Numbered from the stretch's first letter, positions 31,913 to 64,000 are shown. The stretch is DNA of 64,000 bases from Prorocentrum cordatum (GCA_963575745.1 CAUYUJ010000019.1:1-64000); one strand, 5' to 3'. Notes: generated from the letters alone by a model not told the origin. Program-made: numbers and translations.

Positions 31913-32615
31913 GAGGCTACAGTGCTGCTGGGGACAGCAATCGATTTCGAGACATCAGGCGCATCCGCCTGCGAAGAGCAGAGTTCGGAACTCGTGTGCT
32001 GCCCGAATTAGGTCTGCGAAATTACTGTATTGTTGGAGTGATCCTGAGAGGTGCTGTCAGTTTTCTGCACTCAACTCGGGCTGTAGGGGGGCTGCAGGGC
32101 TGGTAATGATAGAAGTCGACTCGCAGACATCAGACGCGTCCGCCTGTCGCATTCAGAGGACACAAAATATTTACTATGAGTCGGAATGTTGGTAGGTCCT
32201 CGGTGTTCTCAACTTCAGTCGAGCTGGAAGCTCTACGAGTCTCCCGGCGGTAACCAAGGTTGACGGTTTACCGCCGGCGTCCAGTGGTATGAGAGATAGA
32301 GGAATTCGGCGACAGGGTGGAGCTAGTTGGCGAAATTTCGACAAGAGACACCATCATACCATCCGCGGTCTGGCTCAGCCGATTTTCAAGCTCTAACCAT
32401 TCGTTTAGGCTGATAATTGCGCAGAACGAAGCTTTGTACCACAGAAGTTGCCTCTCAAATTCTCAGCTCATTCCGTCGACAAATTCTTCTCAGCGAAGCC
32501 AGAAACCAGACTTCAGATTGCCATAAAAAAATGAAAAATTAAAGGTTTAAGCATATCTACTGCGAACTGTTTCGATTATGGGCGCTCTTAAGGGAGAGGA
32601 GCTCTACGAGGTTCC

Positions 32616-32624
32616 TGGCTCAAG
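32616..32624 (+). other. Relic dinoflagellate spliced-leader 3' end (TGGCTCAAG) at the LINE 5' junction
   Basis: Exact match to the last 9 nt of DCCGTAGCCATTTTGGCTCAAG, located precisely at the insertion boundary. Confidence 0.65.
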
Positions 32625-32804
32625 GGCTCCTGGATCCCACAGGGGCTCAGGGGGTGTCGGCGTCGCGGGGAAGCGACGCGGCGGCCATCGCCGCCATCGA
32701 CGAGTACGGCATCTTCCAGGCAAGCTAGGCCGCCTGCTTTGTGTGCTGTAATTGTTGTTGTTTTGCTTGTCGTGTGTGCAACGACGGACGGGTACGACTT
32801 TTCA

Positions 32805-34355
32805 ATGCTTGCTAGACGTTTCCAGCTGGAGGATATTTCCCCGACTGTACCTTATTTGCAGTACTCACAGGATTTCGGACAGAGACCAGATTCTGCTGTG
32901 GAGAGAGCGTCTCGGAAGAGGCAAATTCAGGATACCGAGCAAATTGTACGTGACCTTCCACTGGACGGGAGATTGAATACGGCCGACTCCACACCAGATA
33001 GTGATAGTCATTGTGTTGTCCCATCTTCATTTGTGAATATGAATACAGGACTCATGAATATGATGCAGACTCCTTCCAACGCAACTGTGGCGGGAAATGC
33101 AATCAACGGAGGGCGTGTGGGAGGGGCTCCAGCAGGTCAGGTCAATCCTGGAGGTCAAGGATCTGGAGGCGCTCCTGTTGTTCCTAGAGGCCCAGCTCCA
33201 CAAGGTGCTCTAGGGGGACCCCCAGGTATGCCCACGGAGGCACAACAAGCGGCGGCCCAAGCGGCTGTTGTCCCTGAAGGTGTTGGAGAGCGTCAGGGTA
33301 TGCAGGGCGTTAGCGACGACGCCCAACGAAATGTCAAACATCGTGTCAACGGTCCTCAGGAGGCACTCTTGGGGGAACTCGAGGAGAAACGAACGAAACT
33401 CAGTGTGGTCTCGGATGAGGCCCCATCCTGGTTCAAGGCCTTCGCGGAGCTCAACGTACTCGAGAGCAAAGTTAGGCAACAAGAAAACGTCGAAATTAGG
33501 GCCGACATTCAGAGCATCTCGAACCGTCAGGAGGCCTCCGACATCAGGATGAACAACTTGGAACGACAGATGCAGGACCTCAAGAAGAACCCCAGTGTGA
33601 TATCAGGTGCTGCCTCGACCACGGCACCTTCCTACGGAGGGGGCCCACCAGGACTCTCGGGACCATCCAGCTTCAATCCCAGCTATGTGGAGCTCACAGG
33701 CTGGACTGACTGGAACGGGACAGCGGTTACACGTTCGGCCAGTATGATGAGAGACACGGACGCTGCACAATTCATCACAAATCTGAAGACGGCCATCGCT
33801 GCAGAGGATGAAGCTAGGATCGATTACGAGGGCACATTACGTATGAATGGAAGTAGAATGATGTTGAGTACGATCAAAATCAAATTCATTGTAGGAACCG
33901 ACTCTTCGACACTATACAACGTGAAGCGTGCTTTTGATGATGCTCTAACTCCGAATCCCCAGAGGAATGCGGCTCAGGTTTCGAGGTCACCTCCAGACTA
34001 TGACAGCATGTTCCAGGGCATGTTACAACGACCCAGTCGGGTCCGAGTACGTATAGAAGCTCCACCATGGAAACGTGATCATATCGGAGCTGTGGGACGC
34101 TTCTACGGGACATACCGTGAGTGTACCAACAGTGAGGCCATGGAGATCAGGGGGGAGACAGGATCGGGACCCAACGGACGGAGCACAATGTGGACCAAGC
34201 CGCAGGATCCTCAGCATCGACCCGTGGAACTGGCATCCTTTCGTATCAATACGGGGTGGACAGTGGACCGCGAGATCTGGGAGGGTGTACTTATGCGCAG
34301 CGGTGTGACGACGACATACGACACATTTGTTGCGAGTCTTGCCGGCAGGGTGTGA
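32805..34355 (+). CDS. LINE ORF1 protein (Gly/Pro-rich region, predicted coiled coil, C-terminal globular domain)
   Basis: Long ORF (open from 32739, first ATG 32805) upstream of ORF2. Heptad-like segment ISNRQEASDIRMNNLERQMQDLKK. True start uncertain. Confidence 0.75.
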   Translation: MLARRFQLEDISPTVPYLQYSQDFGQRPDSAVERASRKRQIQDTEQIVRDLPLDGRLNTADSTPDSDSHCVVPSSFVNMNTGLMNMMQTPSNATVAGNAINGGRVGGAPAGQVNPGGQGSGGAPVVPRGPAPQGALGGPPGMPTEAQQAAAQAAVVPEGVGERQGMQGVSDDAQRNVKHRVNGPQEALLGELEEKRTKLSVVSDEAPSWFKAFAELNVLESKVRQQENVEIRADIQSISNRQEASDIRMNNLERQMQDLKKNPSVISGAASTTAPSYGGGPPGLSGPSSFNPSYVELTGWTDWNGTAVTRSASMMRDTDAAQFITNLKTAIAAEDEARIDYEGTLRMNGSRMMLSTIKIKFIVGTDSSTLYNVKRAFDDALTPNPQRNAAQVSRSPPDYDSMFQGMLQRPSRVRVRIEAPPWKRDHIGAVGRFYGTYRECTNSEAMEIRGETGSGPNGRSTMWTKPQDPQHRPVELASFRINTGWTVDREIWEGVLMRSGVTTTYDTFVASLAGRV

Positions 34356-34421
34356 CGGTGCAGAGGTGCCAGTCGGGCTGGTGGCCCCACAGCCCAGCAT
34401 AGGCTAGGCACCCAGAATCTT

Positions 34422-36905
34422 ATGAAACAAGGGGCTACAGCAGATCGGGGATTTGCTTGCATGAGGGCACTTCTTTCTCACGGCTGTGAAGTGTTCTGTT
34501 TACAGGAGTGTGAACACTTACCGTCCAATTCAATTCAGCTACTTGGCTGGCACCTAGTTTACTCAAGTGACAGGAAGGCTTCCATAGCTTTGAGGGGGAA
34601 GTCTTGTCACAACATAGTTCGTTCTTGGAGTAATCATGCTCGTCTTGCTATGGTGTGCTTGCGTCATCCGTGTATCTTTCTTGTCTCTGCGTACTTTCCG
34701 AACAGATCGGAGAATCGTTCATTGGAGGTGGCTTTTGAGATGCTGAAAACAATCGAAACAACTTATCGGAGGTGGAAGGAGGAATGCAGATACACTTGCG
34801 AGCTTGTGATTGCAGGGGATTTTAATGTTGAGCTTGCGCCCGACATCACCTGTTCAGGAGGCACGGTGACTGGAGGTGCTGTGCAGATTCTCGACGGGAG
34901 GGGATATGGGAATGATACGGAGGATAGACGGTGGGAGGAGGACATGTGGCGATCTCAGCTGCAGGAGTGGCTGTGTCGGATGCGCTTGCTGGCAGTCAAT
35001 TCTCTTGGCTCGCCGTACTCTCGGCAGCCGACTTTCGTGCATCGTGCGAACAATGCTCGACGCAAGTCTGGGGCGACGACTTTTGCGCCAAAAGTGCTTG
35101 ACTATCTCATGGTCCCACAATCTTGGGAGGGTGACTTGGTTGAATGCCGAACGGATTGGATCCCAGAGACCCCGACTACCAACTTCTCGGATCATGCCTG
35201 TGTCTACGCCGAGTTCCATATGCAGAACCCTCAGGTCACGAAATATCAGGGCCCCCCTAGCCACCACACAAGCCACAAAGAGTTCCAATCGTATCGGGAG
35301 GAGGCCCAATTTCAGGTCCTGGCGGACGTCCAGATCCCGACGGTGCCCCCACAGCGTCTTGCTGAAACGATTGCTGGTCATGCGTTACCGCTCCTCACGG
35401 TGAGGGCCCCCAGGTACTCTCGAGGGCTTCCGCCGAGTAGGACTCCCCAGCATGCCGAGCTGGAGGTACAACTCAGAGAGGCACGTGCTAGGAAGGACAG
35501 AGCGTTGGCTCGGGACCTTCGACGTCGCATCAGACCGCTTGCGCGGGAATATCGCCGACGGAAGGTGGAGTGGGAGGCGCTACCATCTAGGAAGGGGAGG
35601 AGGACACGTGTGACGGAGTTGAGGGTGACGGACACTGGGGGAGGGGATACGGGGCCTACGACTATGATGACGGAGGACAGGGAACTGTGGGCGGAGGAGG
35701 TGGAGCGATATGCTGTGCAGAGTATGACTTGTGATGACTCCAGAGCCCGCAATCGGGAGCTTGTGTCCACACTGCGTCGCCATGCATCTCAATCAACAGC
35801 CTCTTCGGACAACACACTTACGATTACATACTCTACTATTCTGCAGGCGCGGAGCAGGCTCCGATCAGGACGGGCCTGTGGGCCCGACGGCATCTCGGTT
35901 GAACTTCTCAAATCTCTTTCGTGGAGGTCGGTGCGCTCTATCTGTAAGGTTTTCTCTGATATATTCAACGGGCTTCGCCCGACGCCAAGGGAATGGCAGG
36001 AGGTATATCTAACACTTATGCCGAAAACGAGCAAACTGGAGACATTGCGACAAACAAGGAACCTGCTTGTTGGAAATACCTTGGCCAAGTGGTATCTCAC
36101 GTGTGTGACGATTTTACTGGAACGATGTGTGGAACCCTTCATGAGTGATATGGCGATTTACGGTTTTACCAGCGGACGACGCTGCTGGGAGATTTCATCG
36201 GCCATGAAATGTATTGCACAACATGCTTCCACATGGGGGCGAGATCAAACGGCGTGGCTCCTCAGCTGTGACATCGAGCGGGCGTTCGACGCTGTGACGT
36301 TGCCGACAGTCTCGAGAGCGATGACGGCCCTTGGGATCAGTGCACGGTTACAGTATGCGTTATTGGAGCCTCTCTCATCTACATCATGCACGGTGCTGTT
36401 TGAAGGAGTGACAATCCCTAACGTGCAATGGGATAGGTCGCTCCGTACTGGGGGTACCGAATCACCGATCGCGTTTACTATTGTCACTATTGCTATGTGG
36501 CGGGATGTGATTGCTCGCCTGGACCAGCGCGGCGTCGGAGTCGAGATGCCATGCCATGATGATCATTGCCGGTATGCACGTTGGAATCACGCGCTCTGGG
36601 CTGACAACATTTTCCTGGCCGCCAAGTCAGCATCGGAGGCGCAGTTAGCGGCCACTGCCTTCACTACTGCTCTCAGGGATTGGGGGATGGAGTGGAAGGA
36701 GGAGAGTCTAGAGATGATGGTGTGTGGTACTCAGTACACTGATACGGTCACGGTTCAGATTGGCTCGCGGACTGTTCCTTTCAAGCGTGTTGACAGTTTG
36801 AATGTGCTGGGGTATCAGATTCCCAGGAGTTTCACTTCTGTTCACACGGATGTGCAGGAGCGCATCCAGCAGGCCCGAAGGGCATTCTTTGCGCAGGTGC
36901 AATAG
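34422..36905 (+). CDS. LINE ORF2, N-terminal part: APE endonuclease + reverse transcriptase
   Basis: APE motifs CLQE, SAYFP, IAGDFN, LDYL, FSDH. RT motifs GPDGI, DIERAFDAV, LRTGGTESP, WADNIFL, LNVLG. The frame is open from 34356 and includes the APE N-terminal LGTQNL. Ends at in-frame TAG 36903-36905. Confidence 0.9.
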   Translation: MKQGATADRGFACMRALLSHGCEVFCLQECEHLPSNSIQLLGWHLVYSSDRKASIALRGKSCHNIVRSWSNHARLAMVCLRHPCIFLVSAYFPNRSENRSLEVAFEMLKTIETTYRRWKEECRYTCELVIAGDFNVELAPDITCSGGTVTGGAVQILDGRGYGNDTEDRRWEEDMWRSQLQEWLCRMRLLAVNSLGSPYSRQPTFVHRANNARRKSGATTFAPKVLDYLMVPQSWEGDLVECRTDWIPETPTTNFSDHACVYAEFHMQNPQVTKYQGPPSHHTSHKEFQSYREEAQFQVLADVQIPTVPPQRLAETIAGHALPLLTVRAPRYSRGLPPSRTPQHAELEVQLREARARKDRALARDLRRRIRPLAREYRRRKVEWEALPSRKGRRTRVTELRVTDTGGGDTGPTTMMTEDRELWAEEVERYAVQSMTCDDSRARNRELVSTLRRHASQSTASSDNTLTITYSTILQARSRLRSGRACGPDGISVELLKSLSWRSVRSICKVFSDIFNGLRPTPREWQEVYLTLMPKTSKLETLRQTRNLLVGNTLAKWYLTCVTILLERCVEPFMSDMAIYGFTSGRRCWEISSAMKCIAQHASTWGRDQTAWLLSCDIERAFDAVTLPTVSRAMTALGISARLQYALLEPLSSTSCTVLFEGVTIPNVQWDRSLRTGGTESPIAFTIVTIAMWRDVIARLDQRGVGVEMPCHDDHCRYARWNHALWADNIFLAAKSASEAQLAATAFTTALRDWGMEWKEESLEMMVCGTQYTDTVTVQIGSRTVPFKRVDSLNVLGYQIPRSFTSVHTDVQERIQQARRAFFAQVQ

Positions 36906-38672
36906 TTTACGTGCAGGGCGTTGCCTCTGGTGAAGAAGTTTCGTCGATATCAATCGACTGTGCAGAGCCGCCTTTTATATGCAGCAGAGGCCATCACGAT
37001 TGACAGTGAGTGTGTGAGGGTTATCCATGCGTTCGAGGGTATGTGTCTTCTGAGAATGTCAGGGAGGAGGAAGCCAGGAGATGTGGGGTGGGAGGTTTGG
37101 CGGCCAGCTGCACTGACACGAGTCAGGACAATCTTCTGCGATGGGGGTTTCCCGTCGGCTGTGCAGATGCTGTGTTGGAAGAGCTGGGGCATGATGCGCT
37201 CCACGAGGCAATATTTACTATCCTTGGAGGAGGACAGGACGGCAAGGACGGAGGTTGAGGTGGAGGGATCAACGACTCAACGTGCTAAACGTGTCCGCTT
37301 TACGGATGGACGTGGGGAGGATGTACCTGCTGCGACTGTGATGGAGGTGGAGGGGAGGATTACGGACATGGAGAGGAGGCTGGAGGATCTCTGCTCGCAG
37401 GTCGCCTGTTCCATTGCCCGCTCACAGCCGATGCCCTGTGGGGAGGGAGCTGCCCACACTCTCAGAGACGAGCCGCTTGCCGTCTCAAAGGGGAGGAGGG
37501 CCTTTCGAGACTCCCGACGTGCGCTTATGATGTACAATGTTGGCTGGGTCACGGCTCGCGACACAATAACAGAGGTTCTACGACAACACGGCAACAGGGC
37601 CTTATCTAGTTCGGGCAAACGGCTTCGTGGAGGCCCTGTGTCTGTGGGCGGACGGTCTTGGCAGTTCCCATACATTCAGTTCTTTGGGGAAAAGTGGTGG
37701 GAGTCTGTACGGGGTGATTGGGTTCAATTCTTGGAGGTATGGAAGCAACTCCTTATACAATACAACAAATCTAAGGTCTATGATTACTTTGTGGTGTCTT
37801 GGAAGGGCTCTCCTAATGGACCTCGAGGCTCCCCTGAGGCTCGTGAGAAGGCCGATACCGAGATGGTCGATACCGCGACCAACCCTCTGCACCCCAAGTA
37901 TGACCCCAAAGAGTCCGACAAGCTTGCAATACGATATGCGATGATCCAGGAACGTGCGACTGTGTGGGACATATCGTCAGAGGGTTTTGCTGCTGAGTTC
38001 AAGGGTGACTCACTACTTATCTGCTCCTGGCTCCAGGGTAAATGGAGATGTGAGAATCGTGGCTACTGCAAGAGGACAGCTGCCATGATTGATTGTACCT
38101 TTGAGCTTGCTGCGTGTTTCAATCTGAGGCCTGCTGCCTTGGGACGTGAGATATGGAGACACGAATTCAGGGAGGACAATACACGAGCGGATGAATTGAC
38201 GCATGAGGCCAGATGTGGCCGCACATTCTACAGAACTCATTGTTATCTATATCCATTCGAAACTTATCTCGTACCGTTCGCTATCAGGGGAGGCTTTGAT
38301 GGCGGGGTTGACCAGCAAGGATCAGGATGTGGTTTCTGGCTTCAGATCGGCTTAATCAATACTCAGTGCAATCCCAGTGAGATAGGCATCGCTTCCGCGA
38401 GAACCGTGGGCCCCTTCCCTGCTGGGCATGAGTTTGCTGTTTCTAGTGCCGTGCCCCTCGTTTGGAGGGATGTGGCCGAGGCCGCGTGGCTCCTCGAAGG
38501 AGCTACAGTCACAGAATGTGAATTGTCGGCAGCCGAAGCGCTGCTTAGCGCTGCCCGTGTGCTTCTGCGGGACCGGTCCTCGCCCAGCTGCACTCAGCTG
38601 GGAACGCGAGTCCAAACAAACAAAACAAACCAGGTTGACGTTCACCGCCGGCGCCAGTTGCTGGAAGCATAA
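36906..38672 (+). CDS. LINE ORF2, C-terminal part (same frame after one TAG): RT thumb/connection + RNase H-like domain
   Basis: Same frame as 34422 (AQVQ*FTCRALPLVKKF). RNase H motifs KGDSLL, HEFREDNTRADEL, FDGG..GSGCG, TVTECELSAA. Probably one ORF broken by a nonsense mutation or base error. Confidence 0.8.
   Translation, partial: FTCRALPLVKKFRRYQSTVQSRLLYAAEAITIDSECVRVIHAFEGMCLLRMSGRRKPGDVGWEVWRPAALTRVRTIFCDGGFPSAVQMLCWKSWGMMRSTRQYLLSLEEDRTARTEVEVEGSTTQRAKRVRFTDGRGEDVPAATVMEVEGRITDMERRLEDLCSQVACSIARSQPMPCGEGAAHTLRDEPLAVSKGRRAFRDSRRALMMYNVGWVTARDTITEVLRQHGNRALSSSGKRLRGGPVSVGGRSWQFPYIQFFGEKWWESVRGDWVQFLEVWKQLLIQYNKSKVYDYFVVSWKGSPNGPRGSPEAREKADTEMVDTATNPLHPKYDPKESDKLAIRYAMIQERATVWDISSEGFAAEFKGDSLLICSWLQGKWRCENRGYCKRTAAMIDCTFELAACFNLRPAALGREIWRHEFREDNTRADELTHEARCGRTFYRTHCYLYPFETYLVPFAIRGGFDGGVDQQGSGCGFWLQIGLINTQCNPSEIGIASARTVGPFPAGHEFAVSSAVPLVWRDVAEAAWLLEGATVTECELSAAEALLSAARVLLRDRSSPSCTQLGTRVQTNKTNQVDVHRRRQLLEA
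38583..38628 (+). other. LINE 3' stem-loop and (CAAA)n tail
   Basis: Perfect 8-bp stem CCCAGCTG-cact-CAGCTGGG, followed 10 nt later by CAAACAAACAAAACAA. Confidence 0.7.
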
Positions 38673-41600
38673 GAGTACCTCGTAGAGCTCTTCGTCATCG
38701 ATGAGCTAGAGGAATTCCGGCGCGGGGTGGAGCTAGTTGGCCCAGCCGGCCGAGGCGGGCTGGAGAGCTAGTTGGCAAGAAAAATCTCGACGGAACTTTT
38801 GATGACTTTTGCTCGGTTGAAAATTTCGTTCTCGAAATTTGACAATTCGTTAGAGCTCTAGTATTTTTTCCCGTGATATTCGATCTTATTCCCGCTCTCC
38901 ATCTTGATCTCAGCTCGATCGGGTAACTTTGAAGGCCAAAAAGCACTCTGGCGGGAACGGCCGTTTCGAGTCATCTTGATACGCGCTGTCGGTTTTCTGA
39001 ACATAACTCGAGCTCTAGGGCAGCTACAGAGCTGGTAAGCACAGCTAATGCATGCAGAATGATCAGGCGCGTTCGCCTGTTGAACCCAGAGGTCTGAACT
39101 CGGTCTGTCAGCCGAGCTAGGTCCGCAAACCTGTTTGTATTATTCGAGTGAACTTGATACGCGTTTTCGGTATTTTCTACTTAACTCGAGCTGTAGGGCA
39201 GCTACAGTGCTGGTAAGCACTGCTATCGCTCTCAGAATAATCAGACGCGTTCGCCTATTGAATCCATAGGTCTAAACTCGGTCTGCTAGCCGAGCTAGGT
39301 CCGCAAACCTATTCGTATTATTCGAGTCAACTTGATACGCGTTGTCGGTATTTTCTACCGAAATCGAGCTGTAGGTCAGCTACAGTGCTGGTAAGCACAC
39401 CTGCCACACTCAGAATCATCAGGCGCGTTCGTCTGTTGAATCCAGAGCTCTGAATTCAGTCTGTTGCGCGATCCAGAATCACGAAACTGTTCGTATTCTT
39501 CCAGTCATCTTGAGAGCTATTGTCGGCGTTCTGCACTTAATTCGGACTGTAGGGAGGCTGCAGGGCGGGTAATCACAGGAATCGATTCGGAGACATCAGA
39601 CGCGTCCGTCTGTCGCATTCGGAGGTCTGAACTCGGTCTGATACTCGAGTTGCGCTGAAAAACTATTCGTTCTCTGCAATTTTTTCCGACAGTATATGTT
39701 GTCAGGAAGCTCTACGAGTCCCCCGGCGGTAACAAAGGTTGACGGTTTACCGCCGGCGCCCAGTTGGGGTGGTTTTGCGATTTTTTGAAAGATATTTGAC
39801 AATTCATTTTGAGAAAGCAGATTTTTACTCCGAGCATTGACATATAAACTTTGTTTCCTGAGCAGCTCAGCTCTCTAGAGCCATTTTTAGCACCAGTTCA
39901 CTTGGAGGAACCAACTTCATGTTGACTCCGAAAAATCTTAACTTGAAGTTTTTGTAGAAAAGCTCCCAGAAGCTCATGCTTTGGTGCTGAGCTTTCTCAC
40001 GGATACAAGGAGCTTCTCGGCGGTGACCAGGTTGACGGTTTACCGCCGGCGCCAGTAATTCCGGAGCGCTGGAGAGCTAGTTGGCAAGAAAACTCTCGAC
40101 GGACCTTTTGCTGACTTTGGGTCGGTTGAAAATTTTGTTCTCGAAATTTGAATATTCGTTAGAGCTCTAGTATTTTTTCCCGTGACATTCGATCTTATTC
40201 CCGCTCGCCATCTCGATCTGAGCTCAATCGGGTAACTTTGAAGGTCAAAAAGCGTCCCGGCGGGAACGGCCGTTTCGAGTCATCTTGATACGCGCTGTCG
40301 GTATTTCGTACTTAACTCGAGCTGTAGGGCAGCTACAGAGCTGGTAAGCACAGCTATCGCACTCAGAATTATAAGGCGCGTTCGCCTGTTGAATCCAGAG
40401 GTCTGAACTCGGTCTGCCAGCCGAGCTAGGTCCGCAAATCTATTCGTACTATTCGAGTCATCTTGATAGACACTCGGTTTTCTATACTTAACTCGAGCTT
40501 TAAGGCAGCTACAGTGCTGGTAAGCACACCTATCGCACTCAGAATCATCGCGCGCGTTCGCCTGGTCAAACGAGAGGTCTGAACTCGGTCTGCTAGCCGA
40601 GCTAGGTCCGCAAACCTATTCGTATTATTCGAGTCATCTTGATAGACGGTTTTCTGTATTCAACTCGAGCTGTAGGGCAGCTACAGGGTTTGTTGTGACA
40701 GACATATATGGGGAATCATGAGTCGCGTCCGTCTATGGAACCGAGAGCTCTGAACTCGGTCTGCTAGCCGAGCTAGGTTCGCGAAGCTGTTCGTATTGTC
40801 CGAATGATCTTGAGACGTGCTCTCAGTTTTCTGCACTTAACTCGTGCTGGGGGAGAGCTACAGTGCTGCAGGTCACATCTATCGATTTGCACACATCAGG
40901 CGCGTCTTTCGGTCGATTCCAGAGCTCGGAACTCGGTCTGCTGCTCGAACTAGGTTCGCAAAACTATTATATTATTCGAGTCGATACTGTCGCTTTTCTG
41001 CACTTAACTCGGGCTGTAGGGGGGGCCTTACGAGTAATTCGCTAGTTGGCTCGAAAAAAAAACTGAACCTTTTACAACTTTTGGTCGGTTGAAAATTTTG
41101 TTCTCGAAATTTCAACATTCGTTAGAGCTCTAGTATTTTTTCCCGTGATATTCGATTTTATTCCCGCTCGCATCTTGATTACAGCTCGATATGGTACCTT
41201 TTATTGTGAAAAAGCACACTGGCGGAATCAGCCGTTTCGAGTCGTCTTGATACACGACGTCGGTATTTTGTACTTAGCTCGAGCTGTAGGACAGCTACAG
41301 AGACTACAGTCACAGAAATCGATTAAGACTTATCGGGCGCGTTTGTCTGTCGTATCGATAGGTCTGAACTCGGTCTGCTAGCCGAGCTAGGCCCGCTCAT
41401 CGATTCGTATGATTCGCGCTGTCGGTATTTTCTACTTAACTCGAGCTGCAGGGCAGCTACAGTGCTGTTGAGCACGCCTATCGCGCACAGAATCGTCAGG
41501 CGCGTTCGCCTGTTGAATTTATAGGGCTGAACTCGGTCTGCTAGCCGAGCTAGGTCCGCAAACCTATTCGTATTATTCGAGTGAACTTGATACGCGTTTT

Positions 41601-51900: not shown

Positions 51901-53323
51901 TTTCTCAACTTAAGTCGAGCTTGGAAGCTCTACGAGTTCCCCGGCGGTAACCAAGGTTGACGGTTTACCGCCAGCGCCCAGTTATATGTTGTCAGGAAGC
52001 TCTACGAGTCCCCCGGCGGTAACAAAGGTTGACAGTTTACCGCCGGCGCCCAGTTAGCAAGGAAAATCTCCACGGACCTTTTGGTGAGTTAGAGCTCTAG
52101 TATTTTCCCGTGATATTCGATCTAATTTCCGCTCGCCGTCTTGATCTCAGCTCGATCGGGTACCTTTTACTAGCCAAAAGCACACGGGCGGGATCCGCTG
52201 TTTCGAGTCATCTTGATACGTGCTGTCGGTTTTCTCAAGATTACTCGAGTTTTAGGACAGCCACAGAGCTGGTGGGCCCAACTAATCGATTCAGAATGAT
52301 CAGGCGCGTTCGTCCGATGAACCCAGAGGTCTGAACTCGGTTTGCTAGCCGAGCTAGATCCGCAAACCTATTCGTATTATTCGAGTCATCTTGACAGACG
52401 CTCTCGGTTTTCTGTATTAACTCGAGCTACAGGACAGCTACAGAGCTAATACGTACAGAATCTGATTCAGAATCATCAGTGGCCGTTGTCTGTTGAATCC
52501 AGAACTCGGTCTGCTGCCCGATCTAGAATCGCGAAACTATTCGTATTGTTCGAGTCATCTAGAGAGATGCTGTCGGTTCTCTGCACTTAACTCGGGCTGT
52601 GGGGGGGCTGCATGGCTGGTAATCACTGGAATCGATTCGAAGACATCAGGCGGTCTCGCCTTTCGAATCCAGAGCTCCAAACTCTGTCTGCTGGCGAAAC
52701 TATTCGTATTGTTCGAGTCATCCTGAGAGGTACTGTCGGTTTCCTGCACTTAATTCGGGCTGTAGGATGGCTACATAGCTGCTTATCACAGGAATCGATT
52801 GCGAGACATTAGACGCGTCCGCCTGTCGCATTCAGAGGTCTGAACTCGGTCTGATACTCGAGCTAGGTTTGCCAAACTATTCGTATTGTTCGAGTCATCT
52901 TGAGAGGTGCCGTCGATCTACGCACGTAACTCGGGCTGTAGGAGAGCTACGGAGCTCGTACAGAAGACAATCCAGAAGCATCGGTGGCGTTCGGCTGTTG
53001 CATCCGAGAGGTCTGAAATTGCTTGGGCTGAAAAACTATGTTTTCTGTGTAATTTTTTCGAAATTATATGTTGTCAGGAAGCTCTACGAGTCCCCCGGCG
53101 GGCCACTTCGGCGACTTCGGCTGCCTGCACTTGTTTGCGGCATTTGTTTGCTTCCCGAGGCAAGCAGGCCGCCTGCACTTGTTTGCGGCGTCAGGGAGTC
53201 ACACGTTTGTCGCCTAGAGTGATATTGCACTGCCTTTCATTTGACACGTTTGATCGCCTTGAGTGGTCTTCAATTGATTTGTTTTGCTGGGTGCTTCCGA
53301 GGCAGTCTCTGCAATCTTTCGCT

Positions 53324-54513
53324 ATGCCACACGTACGGGGTGCGAGTGCTCGCATTATGCGTCGGGCGCTGGCTGTTCAAAACGGATACTGTGTGCATTC
53401 ACCTGTTCGTTTGCCTCTGGAAGGTTTGGTGCCACCTACGTGTCTCCCACCACCAGGGCTGGAACGGACGACTGCCGATTTGGTTCTAGATTATCTCTTG
53501 TTGCGCGATCCACCTGTTGTTAGATACAGTTTGGAGGAGGAGGAGGCTGCCATTACGACCGTTTCGGGGAATCTTTCTTGCCGTATGCTTCAAGCCAAAT
53601 ATCCATGTGCCCCTTCGGCAAATGCTGGAGTGCTGGCTGCTGATTCCGTGTTTGATGTTGGATTGCAGACTCGGTATAATCATTTGGAGGTGGAGCAAGC
53701 TGCCGTTGCGACACTCTCGGACAATTTTTCTTGCAGTTTGATGCGGGAGGAGGTTGGTCAGGGATTCGGAGGCGATCAGTTCTCTCAGATGATGGTGGTT
53801 TGCCCACGGGTCTCTTCGGTAGATATTGGAGTGCAGGCTTCTTCTAGTATGGATGTTGCGGACTCTCATTGTGAAGTCGGCTGTCAGACAGAGAGTGTCG
53901 TTGGGATGGAGGGAGGAGCTTCCGGAGTTCTTCTTGGGAAAGTGACCGTGGCGGCGGAGGAGGAGCTGGAGGCGCCCTCGAGTGCGGAGTCTTCTCCGAA
54001 CGTGCAGTCTGATTCCGATAGCCGCGCCTTGTCAGGTGCGTCCCAGGGGTGTCTGAATCGTCCCGTCACACGCTCGTCGTGGCATCGAACCCTGGCTGCA
54101 AGAACGAGGAGGAGGAGAATGTTCATATTGAAGCTGTTGCTCAGATGGAGCAGGAGGAGGTGGCTCAGGAGGATTTTCGCCTGTACCTGGAGAAGGCGCT
54201 AAATCTTCGTATCAGAAAATACAGATTTGTACGGACGACTGCTACGGACGACGTCGTGTCAACGGTGCACGTGCCAGATTTCCTTTCTGAATTTCGAGCC
54301 TGCGATGAGGACGAACGGGACTGTTGGATTTGGGATGCGTTCCAAACCTTCAGGGATCACGATTCAATCGAAGCCGTCTTACATGACCTTCAGCAGGTTA
54401 TGGACAGTGCTGCCCAGCCGTCTGCTCTTGTGAAAGAGGCGAAACACCTCTATGACAACTTTATGGAATTATGTGAATTGCAGAGCAGCGGAGAGCTTGA
54501 TGGAATTATTTGA
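53324..54513 (+). pseudogene. Unknown protein-coding-like cargo (two overlapping frames, 53324-54202 and 54049-54513)
   Basis: Long ORFs with an internal duplicated peptide (LEEEEAAITTVSGNLSC / LEVEQAAVATLSDNFSC) and an acidic tail. No recognised domain. Confidence 0.35.
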
Positions 54514-54756
54514 ATTGACTACGCATGCTTCTGTTGTGTTTGTCCCTTCCTCTCCCCCGCTGTTTCTGCCCCTGGGCTCGCTTTGGCTCCTTGGGCTTCC
54601 CTGCTCCCCGCTTGCTCTCCCTTTGGCTCCCCGCTGGCTGGACTCATCAGAGCTACAGGCCGTGCTGTTCGTGTTGCTATCAGTTCATGTATCAGTGTTC
54701 TGACTTCATATATTTACGACAACAGAGACATTGTATCAGACGTATCCGTGGAGGAT

Positions 54757-55128
54757 CGTGGGAGGCCAGAGGTGGCCAAACTATTACTCGCTGGTTTGCA
54801 TATGATAAGTTCCTCAGTACTCGTAAGACTGCTCTCCGTGGTGCATTCGATGGAGGTGTCAGTAATGAAGGATGTGGAGGTGGGTGGTGGCTTCAGATTG
54901 GCGTTGTAGGTAGGGGTTCCAGCGTGCAGGTTGATTTTCCCATCTCCTCCTCCTCCTCCTCCTCCTTCCTCCTGCACCAGCTCGCACAGCTTCCATTGGC
55001 ACGATGTGGCCGAGGAGGCGATGAGCTTGCCTCCTGGTAGCACAGTAACCTGCTGTGAACTAACTGCCTGCGCTGCCCTGACGAGAGCTGCTGCTAAGGT
55101 GGCGTGCGCTCTGCTGCGACCTACCTAA
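54757..55128 (+). pseudogene. Frameshifted remnant of the LINE RNase H C-terminal segment
   Basis: WEARGG..ALRGAFDGG..GCGGGWWLQIG and WHDVAEEA..GSTVTCCELTAC align with HEARCG..AIRGGFDGG..GSGCGFWLQIG and WRDVAEAA..GATVTECELSAA. Confidence 0.85.
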
Positions 55129-55204
55129 GATGGTGGGGGGCTCAGTTGCACTGCTCCGCCGATTCGGATTCGGATTCTAGTGGCGGACCGCAAACCGCAA
55201 AAAA

Positions 55205-58200
55205 AAGAAAGGTTAACAGTTTACCGCCGGCGCCCAATTTTAGATTAGAAGCTGGACGGTGGTGTTGCCCGCCAGCAGGACATCTCCGCCGGTCCAGGAT
55301 CCCCGCAGCGACTTGTAAAACGTCGCAGCGGGCCCGGGAGAGCTTCCGGCAAGCGTCCAAGCGTGCCTGCACGCGTGCAGGCACGCGTGGAAACGTTCCT
55401 GGCAGCACTTCAGAGGCGCTGCACGGGACCCCCCCCGAACTCCGGAAGCGCTTAACGGGAGCAGCGGACGGCCCGCCAGGCAAGTGTTCCGTGCATTCTC
55501 TTTTCTTTCTGGCTGTTTCCGAGCTGGATCCGCGAAACTGTTCGTATTCTATTTCGTAGAGATTCCCTTAGCAAGTACCTCGTAGAGCTCTTTGGCATCG
55601 ATGGGCTAGAGGAATTCCGGCGCGGGGTGGAGCTAGTTGGCCGACCCGGCCCCGACGGACAAAGTGACAACTTTTTGGTGGTTTTCCGAATATTTGAAGG
55701 ATATTTGCTTATTTATTTTCAGTTTTTCGCACCTGTAGACGACTATGAGGGACTCCGCGTCTTAATATGAGCTCTCTAGATGTACTTTTACTATCAAAAC
55801 ACTTGGCGGAACCAACTTTATGTCGACCTGAAAAAAATTATGTTTTCTCTTTTTCAATAAATGCTTCCAGAAGCCCTCTCTTTTGATGCTCAGCACTCTT
55901 ACGCGTGCTAGGAGCTCTACGAGGTTCCCGGCGGTGACCAGGTTGACGGTTCACCGCCGGCGCCAGCTGTTGCTGGAAACCTACGAGTAATTCCGGGGCG
56001 CTGGAGAGCTAGTACCTCGTAGAGCTCTTCGGCATCGATGAACTAGAGGAATTCCGGCGTAGGGTGGAGCTAGTTGGCCGACCCGGCGCAGACAGACAAT
56101 GTGACAACTTTTGGGTGGTTTCGAAAATTTGAAAGATGTTTGACCATATCTTTCGCACCTGTGGACGATTCTGAGGGCCTCTGCGTCTCAATATGAGCTC
56201 TATAGGTGCACGTTTACCGATCGAAGCACTTGTCGAAACCAATTTCATCTTGACATTAAAAAATCATGTTCCTCTTTTTCGAGAAATGCTTCCAGAAGCC
56301 CTCTCTTTTGATGCTGAGCGCTGACTTTTGGTCGAAATTATGTTCTCGAAATTCAACTATTTGTTAGAGCTCTGGTAATTTTTCTGACCATATGTGATCT
56401 TATTCCTGCTCGCCCTCTTAATCTCAGCTCGATCGGGTAACTATTTCCGCGAAAAAGCATCGCGGCGGGATCGGCAGTGTCGAGTCATCTTGATACGCGT
56501 TGTCGGTATTTTGTATTTAATTCGAGCTGTAGGGCAGCTACAGAGCTCATCCTCACAGACATCGATTGCGAATCATCAGACGCGTTCGTCTGTTCCATCT
56601 GGAGGTCTGAACTCGGTCTGCTGCCTGAGCTAGGTTCGCGACACTATTCGTGTTTTTGAAGTCATCTTGAGAGGTGCTGACAGTTTTCTGCACTTGACTC
56701 GGGCTGTAGGGGGGCTACAGGGCTCGCCGAATTCAGAGCTTGGAACTCGGTGTGCTGCCCGAGCTAGGTTCGCAAACTATTTGTATTCGTCGAGTCATCT
56801 TGAGAGGTGCTGTCCGTTTTCTGCACTCAACTCGAGCTGTGAGGGGGCTGCAGGGCTTGTAATCACAAGAATCGATTCTAAGACATCAGGCGCGTCCGCC
56901 TATTGTATTCAGATGTTTGATTTCGGTCTGATATTCGAGCTAGATTCGCGAAATTATTTGTGTTGTCCGAGTGATCTTGAGAGGTGCTGTCGATTTTCGC
57001 ACGTAACTCGGGCTGTAGAAGAGCTACGGAGCTCGTGCGCACAGGAAACGATCCAGAAGCATGAGGGGCGTTTGTTGGATCGAGAGGTCTGAAATCGTTT
57101 AGGCTGAAAAACTATTCGTTCTCTGCAATTTTTTTTCGACATTATATATGCTCAGAAAGCTCTACGAGTCCCCCGGTGGTAAGAAAGGTTGACGGTTTAC
57201 CGCCGGCGCCCAGTTCGAGTAATCTTGAGAGATGCTGTCGGTTTTCTGCACTTAAGTCGGCTGTAGGGTGGCTGCAGGGCTGGTTATCACAGGAATCGAT
57301 TCGGAGACATCAGACGCGTCTGCCTGTTACATTCAAAGGTCTGAACTCGGTTTGATACTCGAGCTAGATTAGCGAAACTATTCGTATTGACGATTGACGC
57401 ACGTCACTCGGGCTGCAGAGCTACAGAACTCGTGCGCACAGAAAACGATCGAGAAGCATCAGGGGCGTTCGGCTGTTCCATCGACGTCTGAAATCGCTTA
57501 GCCTGAAGCACTATTCGTTCTCTGCATTTTTCCGACATTTTATATGGTCAGGAAGCTCTACGAGTCCCCCGGCGGTAAGAAAGGTTGACGGTCTAGCGCC
57601 GGCGCCCAGTTTGAACATACCTCATAGAGCTCTTCGTTATCGATGAGCTAGAGGAATTCCGGCGCGGGGCGGAGCTAGTTGGTCGATCCGGCCAGAAAAG
57701 AAGATGTGATAACTTTGGCTTGGTGTTCCTAAGATTTGAAAGATATTCGACAATTCATTTTGAGAAAGCAGATTTTTCGCACCTGTAGAGGACTATCAGG
57801 GCCTCTGCGTCTCAACATGAGCTGTGTAGGCACACTTTTACTATTTAAACACGTGGCGAAAACAACTTCACGTTGACATGAAAAATATTAATATTGATTT
57901 TCTCCAGAAGCTCTCCGCTTCGATCCTGAGCTTTCTTGCGTGTGCAAGGAGCTCTACGAGGTTTCCGGCGGTGACCAGGTTGACGGTCCACCGCCGGCGC
58001 CAGTATTGCCAGGCGTCTCGCAGCAAATTTTGAAAATGAGGGCTCCGAGCGAGGAGGCGGAGTTGCGATGGAGCTGTCAGGCGACTCCGTGCTGATACCA
58101 ACTGGATGAGGAAAAGATGGAATTGCAATAAGAATATATACCGATCGCAGGTGGGGGAGGTTATTGATCTGTTAGACGATGCCTGTCGAAATTTTAAGCT

Positions 58201-61200
58201 GCAGGGCCCAGCCACAGGATATGACCTGTGGCGTCATCACTATCGTGAAGGCAAGGACGTGCCGACCGACTGACTGCCTCATCCGCCAACGGACGGGTAA
58301 ACGTGTGCAGGCAATCACTAACTTCCCCAGATTGCTCACTGATGTACTCACCGTCTAGCCACCATCCTCCCCCAGCACCTGCACTGCTGTCGTACGCACC
58401 ACGGATTGCGATCAATGTTTCAGTATTGCCGCGTTTGCCAGTTAAATTCTCAGGTCCGTAGCTGCAATATTATTATCAAAAGACTTGAGGGAACCATCGG
58501 CCGTTCCGAGTCATCTTGACACACGTTGATGGTTTCCTGTGCTTCTCTGCAGTTTAGAAGAGCTACAGAGCTGATGCTTACAGAAACCAATTCAGATGTC
58601 TGTTCCATCGAGAGGTCTGAACTCAGTCTGCTACTCGAGCTAGATCCGCGAAGCTATTCGTAATATACGAGTGATCTTGACAGGTGCTGGGTTTCCCTTA
58701 ACTGATTTATGGTACGCAGATAAACCGATCCAGTATCTCCAGGCGCGTTTTTCCCCCGCATCCGGTGGTCTGAACTCGGTCTGGCACTCGAGCTAGGTGC
58801 AGGAAGCGAAGATGCAAATGAAAGAAAACTATGTTTCGAGCTCGAGAACAGTGCTCTACGAGGCTCCCGGCGGTTACTCTTTTTTTTCTTCTTCTTCTTC
58901 TTCTCATCTTTTTGCAAAATTTGACAGTTCTTTTTTGAGAACCGGTATTTTTCCCACCTGTAGTGGGCTATGCCGCCTCTGCCAGTTAAGTTCTCAGGTC
59001 TGTAGCTGCAATATTACTACCAAAAGACCTTGGAGGGAACCGTCGGACGTTTCGAGTCATGTTGACACACGTTGACGGTTTTCTGTAGTTAACTCGAGAT
59101 TTAGGACAGCTACAGAGCTGAAACTTACAGAAATCGATTTAGAATCAGGCGCGTTCGTCTGTTCCCTCGAGAGCTCTGAACTCGGTCTGCTACTCAAGCT
59201 AGATCCGCGAAACTATTCGTATTATACGAGTGATCTTGAGAGGTGCTGTCGGCTTCCCTTAACTGAAGATTTAGAAGAGCCACAGAGCCGGTACGCATAT
59301 GAACCGATCCAGTATGACCCGGCGCGTTCTTTTCTCGCGTCAAGAGGTCTGAACTCGTTCTGGCACTCGCGCTAGGTCCACGAAACGAAGATGCAAAATG
59401 AAAGAAAAAGTATTATCCGAGCATTTTTCTTCACACTTGAGAAAGCTTTTTCCGTCTGCTCCGAGAAGCGCCGCGCGAGAAAGAGCTCTACGAGGCTTCC
59501 GGCGGTTACCTGGTTGACCGCCGGATCCCAGTTCGGGCGCAGGGTGGAGCTAGTTGGCCGACCCGACCTTAAGAGACAATGTGGTGGCTTGGGGTCGGTT
59601 TTTCCTATCTTTGTGTGAACTTTGAAAGTTCGTTTTAAGAACAGGTATTTTTCCCACCTGTAGTGGGTTCTGCCGCGTCTGCCAGTAAAAATCTCAGGTC
59701 CATAGACGCAATATTACTATCAAAACATTTGAGGGAACCGACTCTGTTTCGAGTCATCCTGACACGCAACTCGAGATTTAGGAGAGCTACAGAGCTGATG
59801 CTTACAGAAACCGATTAAGAATCATCAGGCGCGTTCGTCTGTTGCGTCCAGAGGTCTGAATTCGGTCTGCTAGTCGATCTAGGTCCGCAAAACTATTCGT
59901 ATTCTTCGAGTGAGTCCGACAAGTGCTGCCGGTTTTCTGTACTTAACTCACGATTTAGAGGAGCTACAGAGCTGCTACGCACATACACTGATTCAGTATC
60001 ACCAGGCGCGTTTGTCTGTTGCATCGAGAAGTCTGAACTCGGTCTGCTACTCGAGCTAGGCGACACTATTCGTATTTTTCAAGTTCTCTTTACGGGCGCT
60101 CTCGGTATTATGTACTTAACTCGAGCTGTAGGTGCTAGCGAGCTCGTGCGCACAGAAACCTATTCAGAATCACCGGGGGCGTTCGGCTGAAGCATCTAGA
60201 GCTGAACAGAGTCTGCTACTCGAGCTAGGTCCGCAAATCTTTCGTATGCGACCGAGTTGTTTCGAACTGATGGTGTAATTTTTCACTTAACTCGAGCTGC
60301 AGATGAGCTTGAGAGCTCTCCCGCACAGAAATCAGAAGAACAAATATATTCTCATGTGTGTCTGCCAGTCCAATTCTCAGGTCCGCATATGCAATGTTAC
60401 TATCACGGGAACCGACGCTGGATGAAAACGGGAAAAACGTTTTTTTTCGAGCTTTTTTCTTCGCGATTGAGAATGCTTTTCCCGTGTGTTCCGAGCAGCG
60501 CCGCGCGAGAAAAGAGCTCTACGAGGGTCCCGGCGGTTACCTGGTTGACGGTTTACCGCCGGATCCCAGTTGGTAGAACCGACCTTAAGAGACAATGTGG
60601 TAACTTGGGGTCGGTTTTTCTATCTTTTTGCAAAATTTGAAAGTTCGTTTTAAGAACTGGTCTTTTTCCCACCTGTAGTGGATTATGCCGCGTCTGCCAG
60701 TTAAATTCTCAGTTCCGTAGCTGCAATATTACCATCAAAAGACTTGAGGGAACCGTCGGCCGTTTCGAGTCATCTTGACACGCGTTGACGGTTTTCTGTA
60801 TTTTAATCGAGATTTAGGACAGCTACAGAGCTGATACGTACAGAAATCGATTTAGAATCATCAGACGCGTTCGTTTGTTCCATCGAGAGGTTTGAAATCG
60901 GTCTATTCCTCGAGCTACGAAGGTGCTCATTTAAAAAACGTATTTTTCGAGCTTTTTTCTTCACGCTTGAGAAAGTTTTTTTCGTGTGCTCCGAGCAGCG
61001 CCGCGCGAGAACAGAGCTCTACGAGGCTCCCGCGGTTACCTGGTTGACGGTTTACCGCCAGATCCCAGTCTCAAGCCCTCTAGCTCCCAGAGAGCTCTTC
61101 GGGAATTTGGGAAGAGATCATCATGCGCGCCATTCGAAAGTATCTGGACACCCGCGCTCAGTCTGCTATTAGCGCTAGGGCCGAATACCGATTTGCGCTC

Positions 61201-61940: not shown

Positions 61941-62282
61941 TGAGACCGATCCACGTTCGGGCAGGCTCACGCGCGGGCAGAGGCGCAGCAAGTCTGCCCA
62001 GCTACGACGCCAGCTCCGTGGCGTCGAACGGCGCGGAGGCGCGCTGGCCGGATCGGGCTCTGAGGGCGCTGGAAGTGCGGGTAGCCCCGCCTCCGCGCGC
62101 CTCGAGCCCGAGGCGCAGTCAGAGCGCGTGGGACGTGCGGGTAGCTCCGCCTCCACGCAGCTCAAACCAGAGTGCGCGGGTAGCACCGTCACTCAGGAGC
62201 CCAAGAACGAGCTCGAGTCCGAGACCGAGCCCAAGACTAAGATTAGGAAGGTGTTCATCGATTGGAACGACCTTTAGGAAAC

Positions 62283-63932
62283 ATGGAGCAGCTACAGCAA
62301 CAAAACCAACAGCTTACCGCACAACTACAACAGCAAGCAGCAACGATGCAGCATATGCAGCAGCAGATGACTGAGATGCAGGTCCAGCTGAAGTCCACGA
62401 CCGCGGCTTCGTCCAGGGACCCTCAGCCGACCCTCGCGGTGGACACCCGCGTGATCGGCAAGCCTAGGGAGTTCGACGGAGAGAAGGATTGGAAATATTG
62501 GTCTATCGTCATGCGGTCGTATGCCGCATGCTGCCACGAGCAGCTTGGGACGTTGATGAGAACGGCGGAGCTCTCTGAGGACCGCGTGGACAACGTGCAC
62601 CTTTCTCCAGCAGACCGTCAGTTCAGCACCCAGCTGTTCTACATGCTGGTGATGGTGTGCCGTGGCTCTGCCCTCACGCGGGTGGTCAACCAAGGCGCCA
62701 CTGAGGGCCTCTTGGCGTGGGGGGCGCTCTGCCAGCACCACGAGCCGTCAAGTGCGGCTCGCCATGCCAGCTTACTTTTGGACCTCTTATCCTTCAACTT
62801 CGATGGTGACACCACTGCCAGGTTGGAACAGTTTGAGCGCGACGTCCACCGGTACGAGTTGTCATCTAGCTTGTTGCTCGACGACGCCATCAAGGTTGGC
62901 ATCGTCCTCCGGCAGCTGCCAGACGGAGCATTGAAGCAGCACCTGGTCTTGAACATGGACCGGTTCGACACCTGGACGAAGATCCGCACTGAGATTGAGG
63001 CAGTGCGCCGGGCTCAGCAGGCTGCGAGCCATGGCGCTCGCCCGATGGACGTCGACACTCTGGCGCTGCTGAGGCAGGTCCCCGAGGACGAGCTGACGAC
63101 GCAGCTGGCCGCGATGGGGTTCCAGGTGAAGGGCAAGGGCAAGACAGGTGGAGGCAAGGGGAGAGACAAAGCTCCAACGACCAATTGCCCCATCTGCGAC
63201 AAGCCAGGCCACTGGAAGAAGGACTGCTGGTGCAACCCGGCCAACAAGGGGGCAGGGTCCGGCAAAGGAGCGCCACCTAAGGGCGGCAAGGGCAACGACG
63301 CGAAGGACAAGTCCAAGGCGAACAACACCAAGAAGACATGTTGGAAATGCGGTGAGACGGGCCACCTTCGAGAAGAGTGCAAGATACCAAAGAAGGTGCA
63401 CTCGATCGAAGTGGTCGTGGACGACCAGGGCGGATCCCTAGGACACCTCTTCCTGCTGCATTCGGCCGTGAACCTCGCGGGCGTCTCGTCCGAAAAGGGC
63501 CGCACGATGCGCGTTGGCATCGACTCCGGTGCTGCTGTGACGGCCGTGCCGGATTGTCACTGCAAAGGGTACCCGCTGTACAAGAATACGCCCGGCACCG
63601 GCAGGTCCTACGAGAGCGCCGCCGGGGAGAAGATCCTGGATCGAGGTGAGCGGCGTCTACTCTGTCGTGCGGACGGTCGTTTACGAGGACTGCGAGCGCG
63701 CGCATGCAAGGTGAAGAAGCCCTTGCTGAGCGTGTGCGACATGTGCAAGGCAGGACAGATGGTGGTCTTCGACTTTGACTCCAATGGCAACGACAGGAGC
63801 CATGCCATCCACAAGGCGACCGGCGAGAAGACCAACTTTCAGCTCAGGAACAGGGTGTGGGAGTTGGATCTGGAGGTCGTGCCGCACGACCAGGCAGAGA
63901 AGATCGCCACCAAGATCTTGGACGACCAGTAG
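62283..63932 (+). CDS. gag: Gag (two CCHC zinc knuckles) + aspartic protease
   Basis: CPICDKPGHWKKDC and CWKCGETGHLREEC. PMDVD motif. Protease IDSGAAVT. The TAG at 63930 sits in a CAG run and the frame continues to TAA 63990-63992. Confidence 0.9.
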   Translation: MEQLQQQNQQLTAQLQQQAATMQHMQQQMTEMQVQLKSTTAASSRDPQPTLAVDTRVIGKPREFDGEKDWKYWSIVMRSYAACCHEQLGTLMRTAELSEDRVDNVHLSPADRQFSTQLFYMLVMVCRGSALTRVVNQGATEGLLAWGALCQHHEPSSAARHASLLLDLLSFNFDGDTTARLEQFERDVHRYELSSSLLLDDAIKVGIVLRQLPDGALKQHLVLNMDRFDTWTKIRTEIEAVRRAQQAASHGARPMDVDTLALLRQVPEDELTTQLAAMGFQVKGKGKTGGGKGRDKAPTTNCPICDKPGHWKKDCWCNPANKGAGSGKGAPPKGGKGNDAKDKSKANNTKKTCWKCGETGHLREECKIPKKVHSIEVVVDDQGGSLGHLFLLHSAVNLAGVSSEKGRTMRVGIDSGAAVTAVPDCHCKGYPLYKNTPGTGRSYESAAGEKILDRGERRLLCRADGRLRGLRARACKVKKPLLSVCDMCKAGQMVVFDFDSNGNDRSHAIHKATGEKTNFQLRNRVWELDLEVVPHDQAEKIATKILDDQ

Positions 63933-64000
63933 CAGCAGTCCAAGAAGTTGCAGGATTTGTGCCCTTTCGAGGGGCAGGTCCTGTGGCCGTAAGTCCAACT

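Follow-up and report, generated by a model that had tools for sequence, protein, structure and literature searches.

A probable circularly permuted RNase H at the C-terminus of a LINE ORF2 from Prorocentrum cordatum

RNase H is among the best-studied folds in nucleic-acid enzymology and protein-folding research, and the locus described here raises the question of whether a LINE element can end its ORF2 in a natural version of this fold with its two halves encoded in swapped order. A sequence-only reading of the window (the whole 64,000-nucleotide stretch from Prorocentrum cordatum that was analysed) had proposed such a circular permutation from the order of four motifs. Here we consider in turn the element and its motifs, the relatives of the domain, the homology and predicted fold of each half, and what such a domain might do and how it might have arisen.

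The LINE copy and the order of its RNase H motifs

The LINE (non-LTR retrotransposon) copy occupies 32332..38631 on the + strand, with approximate ends, and is inserted in a landscape of 178-bp satellite whose arrays, with other repeat segments between them, dominate the window, halt at 31570 and restart at 38965, the insertion itself (~32.3-38.6 kb of the window) being richer in G+C. Its 5' flank matches an empty host repeat unit collinearly as far as 32331, and at its 3' end a CAAA-rich CAAACAAACAAAACAA(CC) tail adjoins a host motif at 38629/38632. Within the insertion a single long + frame is cut by two stops into pieces at 32592-34355 (ending in TGA), 34356-36905 (ending in TAG) and 36906-38672. 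The first piece is an ORF1-like frame (32592..34355, +; first ATG at 32805, TGA end) in which a Pfam scan found no family. ORF2 spans 34356..38631 (+; first ATG at 34422) with one in-frame TAG at 36903-36905, and it contains a weakly matched APE-type endonuclease/exonuclease/phosphatase-like region (34467..35195, +; PF03372, E 0.0079, 16.4 bits against a cut-off of 24.5), a reverse transcriptase (RT; 36117..36821, +; PF00078 RVT_1, E 7.6e-13, 49.1 bits against a cut-off of 29.6) and an RT-RNase H linker (36906..37985, +), the modelled part of which (from 37560) is all helices and includes a conserved helix, (A/K)RLA..nE, at 37905-37952. The third frame piece, 36906-38672, matched no Pfam family. 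When the TAG is read as X, residues 6-1412 of the 1438 in ORF2 align to the relative P0013 (1455 aa) over its residues 7-1455 (E 8e-171), and because this read-through product aligns end to end with P0013, the second and third frame pieces belong to one LINE ORF2. At position 36905 the contigs of three other public runs read T and not G at almost all depth, so the TAG is private to the window copy. Beyond the domain the ORF2 frame runs on through the tail into host DNA as far as a stop at 38670-38672. Because its frame is interrupted by the TAG and is not closed by its own stop before the tail begins, the window copy is a pseudogene.

Some further features of the frames can be noted here. ORF1 and the two parts of ORF2 share one frame, their only separators being the TGA at 34353-34355 and the TAG. 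In the stretch from the RNase H helix to the CAAA-rich tail the window copy lacks its own stop codon, and the final 13 codons plus TAA of the long frame (38632-38672) are host repeat DNA.

All four RNase H motifs stand in one open frame (36906-38672), in the order GDS (38004), H..RE.N..AD (38160), FDGG..G.G (38295) and T.TECEL (38505). The coordinates given for them in the sequence-only reading are exact (KGDSLL at 38001-38018, HEFREDNTRADEL at 38160-38198, FDGG at 38295-38306 and TVTECELSAA at 38505-38534), and its claim that all four acidic residues are intact also holds: in the numbering of the 370-aa piece that begins at 37560, these are D150 (38007-38009), D211 (38190-38192), D247 (38298-38300) and E321 (38520-38522). 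The C-half is encoded first (37986..38213, +) and carries b4 (GDS, D150), aB, aD, b5 and aE (H..RE.N..AD, D211). A linker at 38214..38267 (+; EAR.G, then a short strand) leads from the old C-terminus at aE to the old N-terminus at b1, and the N-half is encoded second (38268..38579, +) with b1 (FDGG, D247), b2 (G.GCGFW), b3 and aA (TECEL, E321). The b2-b3 hairpin holds an insertion of ~33 residues (38361..38459, +), which is found only in the window's subfamily and is modelled with low confidence. Three contigs of other runs (X2, X4 and X7, one each) skip 103-104 bases at 38348-38454, coinciding with this insertion, and since their loose ends resemble the P0001-type subfamily, several subfamilies coexist in the same samples.

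The same reading had held that no N-half precedes GDS, and we found none there. The N-half hidden Markov model (HMM) of the family matches the window's 588-aa ORF only at aa 460-557, and each of the two half HMMs matches that ORF exactly once. Moreover, the 382 aa that separate the RT from b4, aligned over eight full-length proteins, gave no N-half when compared with the canonical RNase HI profile, with its N part or with the family N-half (P 0.23, 0.6 and 0.72, respectively).

The window also holds two decayed copies of the domain. One, frame-shifted, lies at 54519..55200 (+) and has the same order, and its A-rich tail ends at the same host motif. The relative that had been noted at 54757 is therefore real and keeps the order with a recognisable FDGG/TCCEL N-half, but it is a frame-shifted pseudo-copy in which the C-half motifs have mutated (GSP for GDS and FIYLRQQRHCI for H..RE.N..AD). 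The other fragment (57984..58270, +) is C-half only, with stops. Just upstream of the frame-shifted copy a 432-codon open frame (52904-54202) may be the degraded body of a second LINE; in tblastn at E<=1e-3 the ORFs of the intact LINE had no similarity to it.

The host motif, ..AGGTTGACGGTTyACCGCCGGCGyCCAGT, is preceded by a partial inverted complement, CCGGCGGTAAC, and has 50 copies in the window, at 32255-32285, 38629-38658, about 55205-55235 and 47 more sites. The A-rich tails of the near-intact LINE and of the decayed copy at 55.2 kb both end exactly at this motif, and the same junction of tail and host motif occurs in a contig of another run. This shared junction could reflect insertion at a specific site, or else a unit with the element already inside it may have been duplicated. 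A reading of the direct repeat that flanks the LINE as a 27-bp target-site duplication was dropped, the repeat being this same host motif with its 50 copies. Across 1-31570 and 38965-62000 the 178-bp satellite arrays (2-13 units) alternate every 1-1.5 kb with conserved spacers, and AT skew on the + strand is persistently negative (about -0.1) across this landscape; in 62001-64000, G+C rises to 0.61 and the AT skew changes sign.

Order of the two halves among relatives

To place the domain in a family we used the 370-aa piece in a full HMMER scan of 1.84 billion representatives, which returned 130 proteins at E<=1e-3, and a word-based search added two further relatives. A search with the RT region matched one relative, a metagenome scan with a single protein found no relative, and tblastn of the relative P0122 against phages gave no match. 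HMMs of the two halves were then built from the family's own sequences (domain E<=1e-3), and because such HMMs match the family by construction, only the order and the number of their matches are informative. Both halves were found in 86 of 129 matched proteins, with the first half only in 34 and the second only in 8, these single-half relatives being mostly short fragments. In all 86 relatives with both halves the C-half stands before the N-half, and an N-half upstream of a C-half occurs in none of them, so that the swapped order is a family trait, as the sequence-only reading had argued from two copies. From the end of the N-half (its E-bearing helix) to the end of the protein these 86 relatives have just 1-62 residues (median ~10), and in the long members (1279-1491 aa) RVT_1 lies upstream and the RNase H domain at the extreme C-terminus of ORF2, the full-length relatives among them being 1306-1491 aa long. 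An identical 1455-aa product recurs on contigs of up to 11.6 kb. Among 20 clusters looked up, one has a taxon label, Prorocentrum cordatum (a dinoflagellate), given for the distant member P0113.

The order of the halves might also be confined to the window copy, as the product of a rearrangement, a frameshift or an assembly artefact, and it is true that the copy has a premature TAG and that two other decayed fragments lie nearby. However, the same order is seen in 86 independent protein clusters from several sources, and a 1094-base contig of another run spans 37549-38640 with 9 differences. We give such an artefact almost no credence, since the order in the relatives together with the contig from another run already refutes it, unless all of these records share one assembly error.

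The relatives fall to ~20-25% identity with the window sequence. Among rows with a residue at the respective column the Asp of GDS is kept in 94/98, that of AD in 107/109, that of FDG in 91/91 and the Glu in 79/79, and near-invariance of the carboxylates at such low identity argues for selection on a predicted catalytic activity.

Homology and predicted fold of each half

Neither the window ORF nor either half alone matched a Pfam RNase H family at E up to 10, and none was found in the two closest relatives either. Among 62 of the 130 relatives (the longer ones) Pfam gave weak RVT_3 matches in 21, with two of the 62 above the gathering score of 21.6 bits. Twenty of these 21 matches are to profile positions 56-123, that is the C part, and are located first in the protein, and the remaining one (P0103) is to profile positions 2-57 and is placed after the C-half of that protein. 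A single window sequence had no match among PDB sequences at E<=10, whereas a family profile made from 70 family sequences found the Halobacterium RNase H1 4e19_A (E 3.9e-8), followed by 3u3g, 3aly/2ehg, 4h8k and 3hst. The match to 4e19_A is itself swapped, with profile positions 30-105 on chain residues 134-198 (28.7 bits) and positions 122-189 on chain residues 69-129 (8.6 bits), and GDS, AD, FDG and AE are all in register. The nearest clusters in the ESM Atlas, which we treat only as a lead, were RVT_3/RNase_H at 0.90-0.92.

By sequence the N-half alone is the weak link: Pfam RVT_3 matched one of 29 typed N-halves (E 0.027), and an N-half-only profile had no match among PDB sequences at E<=10 in HMMER. 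For this reason a canonical RNase HI profile was built for hhalign from 24 sequences (E. coli rnhA, 8 enterobacterial homologues and 15 phage RNase H genes). Against this profile the N-half, in register at D10 and E48, aligned over residues 8-61 of E. coli RNase HI (P 1e-3), and the C-half, in register at D70 and D134, over residues 62-142 (P 4.6e-5). In 150 column shuffles for each half none reached the observed score (N-half, 23.4 against a null of 9.6 +/- 1.8 with a maximum of 16.6; C-half, 32.4 against 11.0 +/- 2.2 with a maximum of 18.6), and wrong-half controls, in which each half was set against the other half of the canonical profile, gave P 0.66 and 0.47. With narrower targets the N-half match was weak though in the right register against E. 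coli RnhA alone (E 0.1 and 0.14), and with an enterobacterial profile of low diversity as the target P was 0.026 and 0.004. The two half-matches in swapped order that had been anticipated were thus obtained at the level of profiles, but the Pfam RVT_3 and RNase_H models miss the window's own sequence.

We then examined the predicted structure. AlphaFold2 with a 70-row alignment gave the window piece a pLDDT of 95-98 over residues 140-270 and 300-340, with residues 1-131 of the 370-aa piece all-helical and 268-300 a low-confidence insertion. The elements of the C-half in this model are E143-149, H152-159, H167-187, E199-201 and H208-218, and those of the N-half E237-251, E254-267, E301-311 and H317-340, with each carboxylate on the predicted element where RNase H has its own. 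The relative P0122 (189 aa, 26% identity) was predicted with a mean pLDDT of 93.9, a pTM of 0.90 and the same element order, and from this pTM the model places the two halves in a single rigid domain. In both proteins the predicted order is b4-aB-aD-b5-aE-linker-b1-b2-b3-aA and not the canonical b1-b2-b3-aA-b4-aB-aD-b5-aE.

Structure searches with Foldseek and VIA-align, which depend on sequence order, gave no strong match to the whole domain. The matches to RNase H structures cover only the first-encoded half (3u3g_D, Z 4.0 over 79-82 residues at 23-27% identity; 4e19_A and 3aly_B, Z 3.5 in VIA-align, C-half only), and such half-only matching would be expected of a permutant yet gives no positive proof of one, since with sequential aligners the lack of a full-length RNase H match is uninformative in either direction. 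The best rows overall, at Z 5.2-5.3, were SPOUT-like proteins, and taken at face value the top VIA-align rows (RlmH/SPOUT and CinA, Z 4.8-5.3 with 106-111 residues aligned), being other than RNase H, might suggest some other alpha/beta fold (SPOUT- or CinA-like, for instance) in which RNase H-like motifs arose by convergence. These Z values lie within the tool's range for common arrangements, however, at an identity of 4-11%, and the profile comparisons link each half to RNase HI in particular, keep the catalytic residues in register and have null controls, so we regard convergence as highly improbable. When the two halves were modelled as separate chains with 2 Mg, the complex scored 0.14, the mark being 0.34, in a run that made no use of the alignment and in which the fold of the partner was uncertain.

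It could also be that a tandem duplication has left the C-half of one RNase H next to the N-half of another without the two folding together, so that they are either remnants in decay or a tail that binds nucleic acid but lacks catalysis. A C-half followed by an N-half is what duplication leaves, the window's own sequence lacks a Pfam RNase H match, the activity of the domain is a prediction, and the window copy is a pseudogene. Yet conservation of the DEDD residues stands at 96-100% across relatives whose identity drops to ~20-25%, exactly one of each half is kept in 86/86 relatives, and the AlphaFold2 model of P0122 is one compact domain, so that a relic of this kind seems to us unlikely.

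A permuted RNase H in a LINE clade

Taken together, the swapped half-matches of the profiles, the lack of an N-half upstream, the uniform order in the relatives and a predicted topology that is a cyclic shift of the canonical one bear out the original proposal, and we consider it probable, with good confidence, that this ORF2 ends in a type-1 RNase H, of the kind represented by RVT_3 and the archaeal enzymes, whose coding sequence is circularly permuted. Starting at b4, the chain would run through aB, aD, b5 and aE, then pass by a linker of 18-25 residues (EAR.G...) to b1, b2 and b3, with aA last. In such an arrangement the linker would join the ancestral C- and N-termini, the new termini would be cut between aA and b4, and both halves would fold into one RNase H-like domain, in which D247 (b1), E321 (aA), D150 (end of b4) and D211 (aE) might be gathered for two-metal catalysis. 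Canonical LINE RNase H domains are thought to degrade the template RNA of the hybrid made by the RT, and the permuted domain may likewise degrade the RNA template of the RNA:DNA hybrid from the adjacent RT, after first-strand synthesis.

Circular permutations usually evolve when a tandem duplication loses its outer halves. The likeliest origin of the present domain would similarly be a tandem duplication of RNase H in which the N-half of the first copy and the C-half of the second were then lost. As a conjecture, the conserved helix that directly precedes b4 might descend from the aA of the first copy, but hhalign gave no similarity at this helix.

How does the domain compare with known systems? 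With the RNase H of other LINE ORF2 proteins (Pfam RVT_3, PF13456) and with archaeal-type RNases HI (Sulfolobus tokodaii 2EHG/3ALY, Halobacterium 4E19 and LC11 3U3G) it shares the motifs and the D/E/D/D tetrad, and with the former the position after the RT at the end of ORF2; its best sequence and structure matches are to proteins of these kinds. It differs from both in that its halves are swapped (b4..aE before b1..aA), in that Pfam remains below threshold on the window protein, and in the ~33 aa which the window subfamily adds to the b2-b3 hairpin. Circular permutants of E. coli RNase H have been engineered for folding studies, and these show that new termini are tolerated by the fold, although they are man-made, have other cut points and stand outside mobile elements.

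The sequence-only reading knew of no natural permuted RNase H in a retroelement, and our search of the literature in retrotransposon, LINE and dinoflagellate contexts likewise found no description of one. In its wider form, that no natural permuted RNase H has been described, the claim has to be qualified by CIRPIN, a structure screen of the AlphaFold DB from 2025/26, which reports in the available portion of the paper a circular permutation between two RNase H-like domains (PMC13552848). Like that pair, the present domain would be a natural permutation within the RNase H-like fold. The main text of that source, as far as it is available, names neither the proteins nor a retroelement context (PMC13552848), and its pair could be the same family as ours. 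In that same portion, CIRPIN's own literature search gives no earlier ribonuclease permutation besides RNase T2/BECR (PMC13552848). In a 2014 survey of the RNase H-like superfamily the string 'permut' is absent from the full text (PMC3985635).

Naturally occurring rearrangements of an enzyme fold are rare, and a swapped-half RNase H would be one of them. If the clade does carry an active permutant, it would be the first retroelement case of a naturally permuted RNase H, and a natural experiment on how the RNase H fold, and its coupling to the RT, cope with displaced termini. A family-wide permutant with the full tetrad would show evolution re-threading a fold while the active site is kept, and would document the duplication-truncation route to permutation within a mobile element. 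The permutation would also account for the failure of standard domain models to recognise the RNase H, so that LINEs of this type would be annotated without the domain, and the permuted domain may serve as a sequence marker for a LINE lineage abundant in aquatic metagenomes. On balance we lean slightly towards the view that a whole LINE clade, one or more of whose members carry a dinoflagellate label (Prorocentrum cordatum), has swapped its canonical RNase H for an active permutant by way of duplication and truncation.
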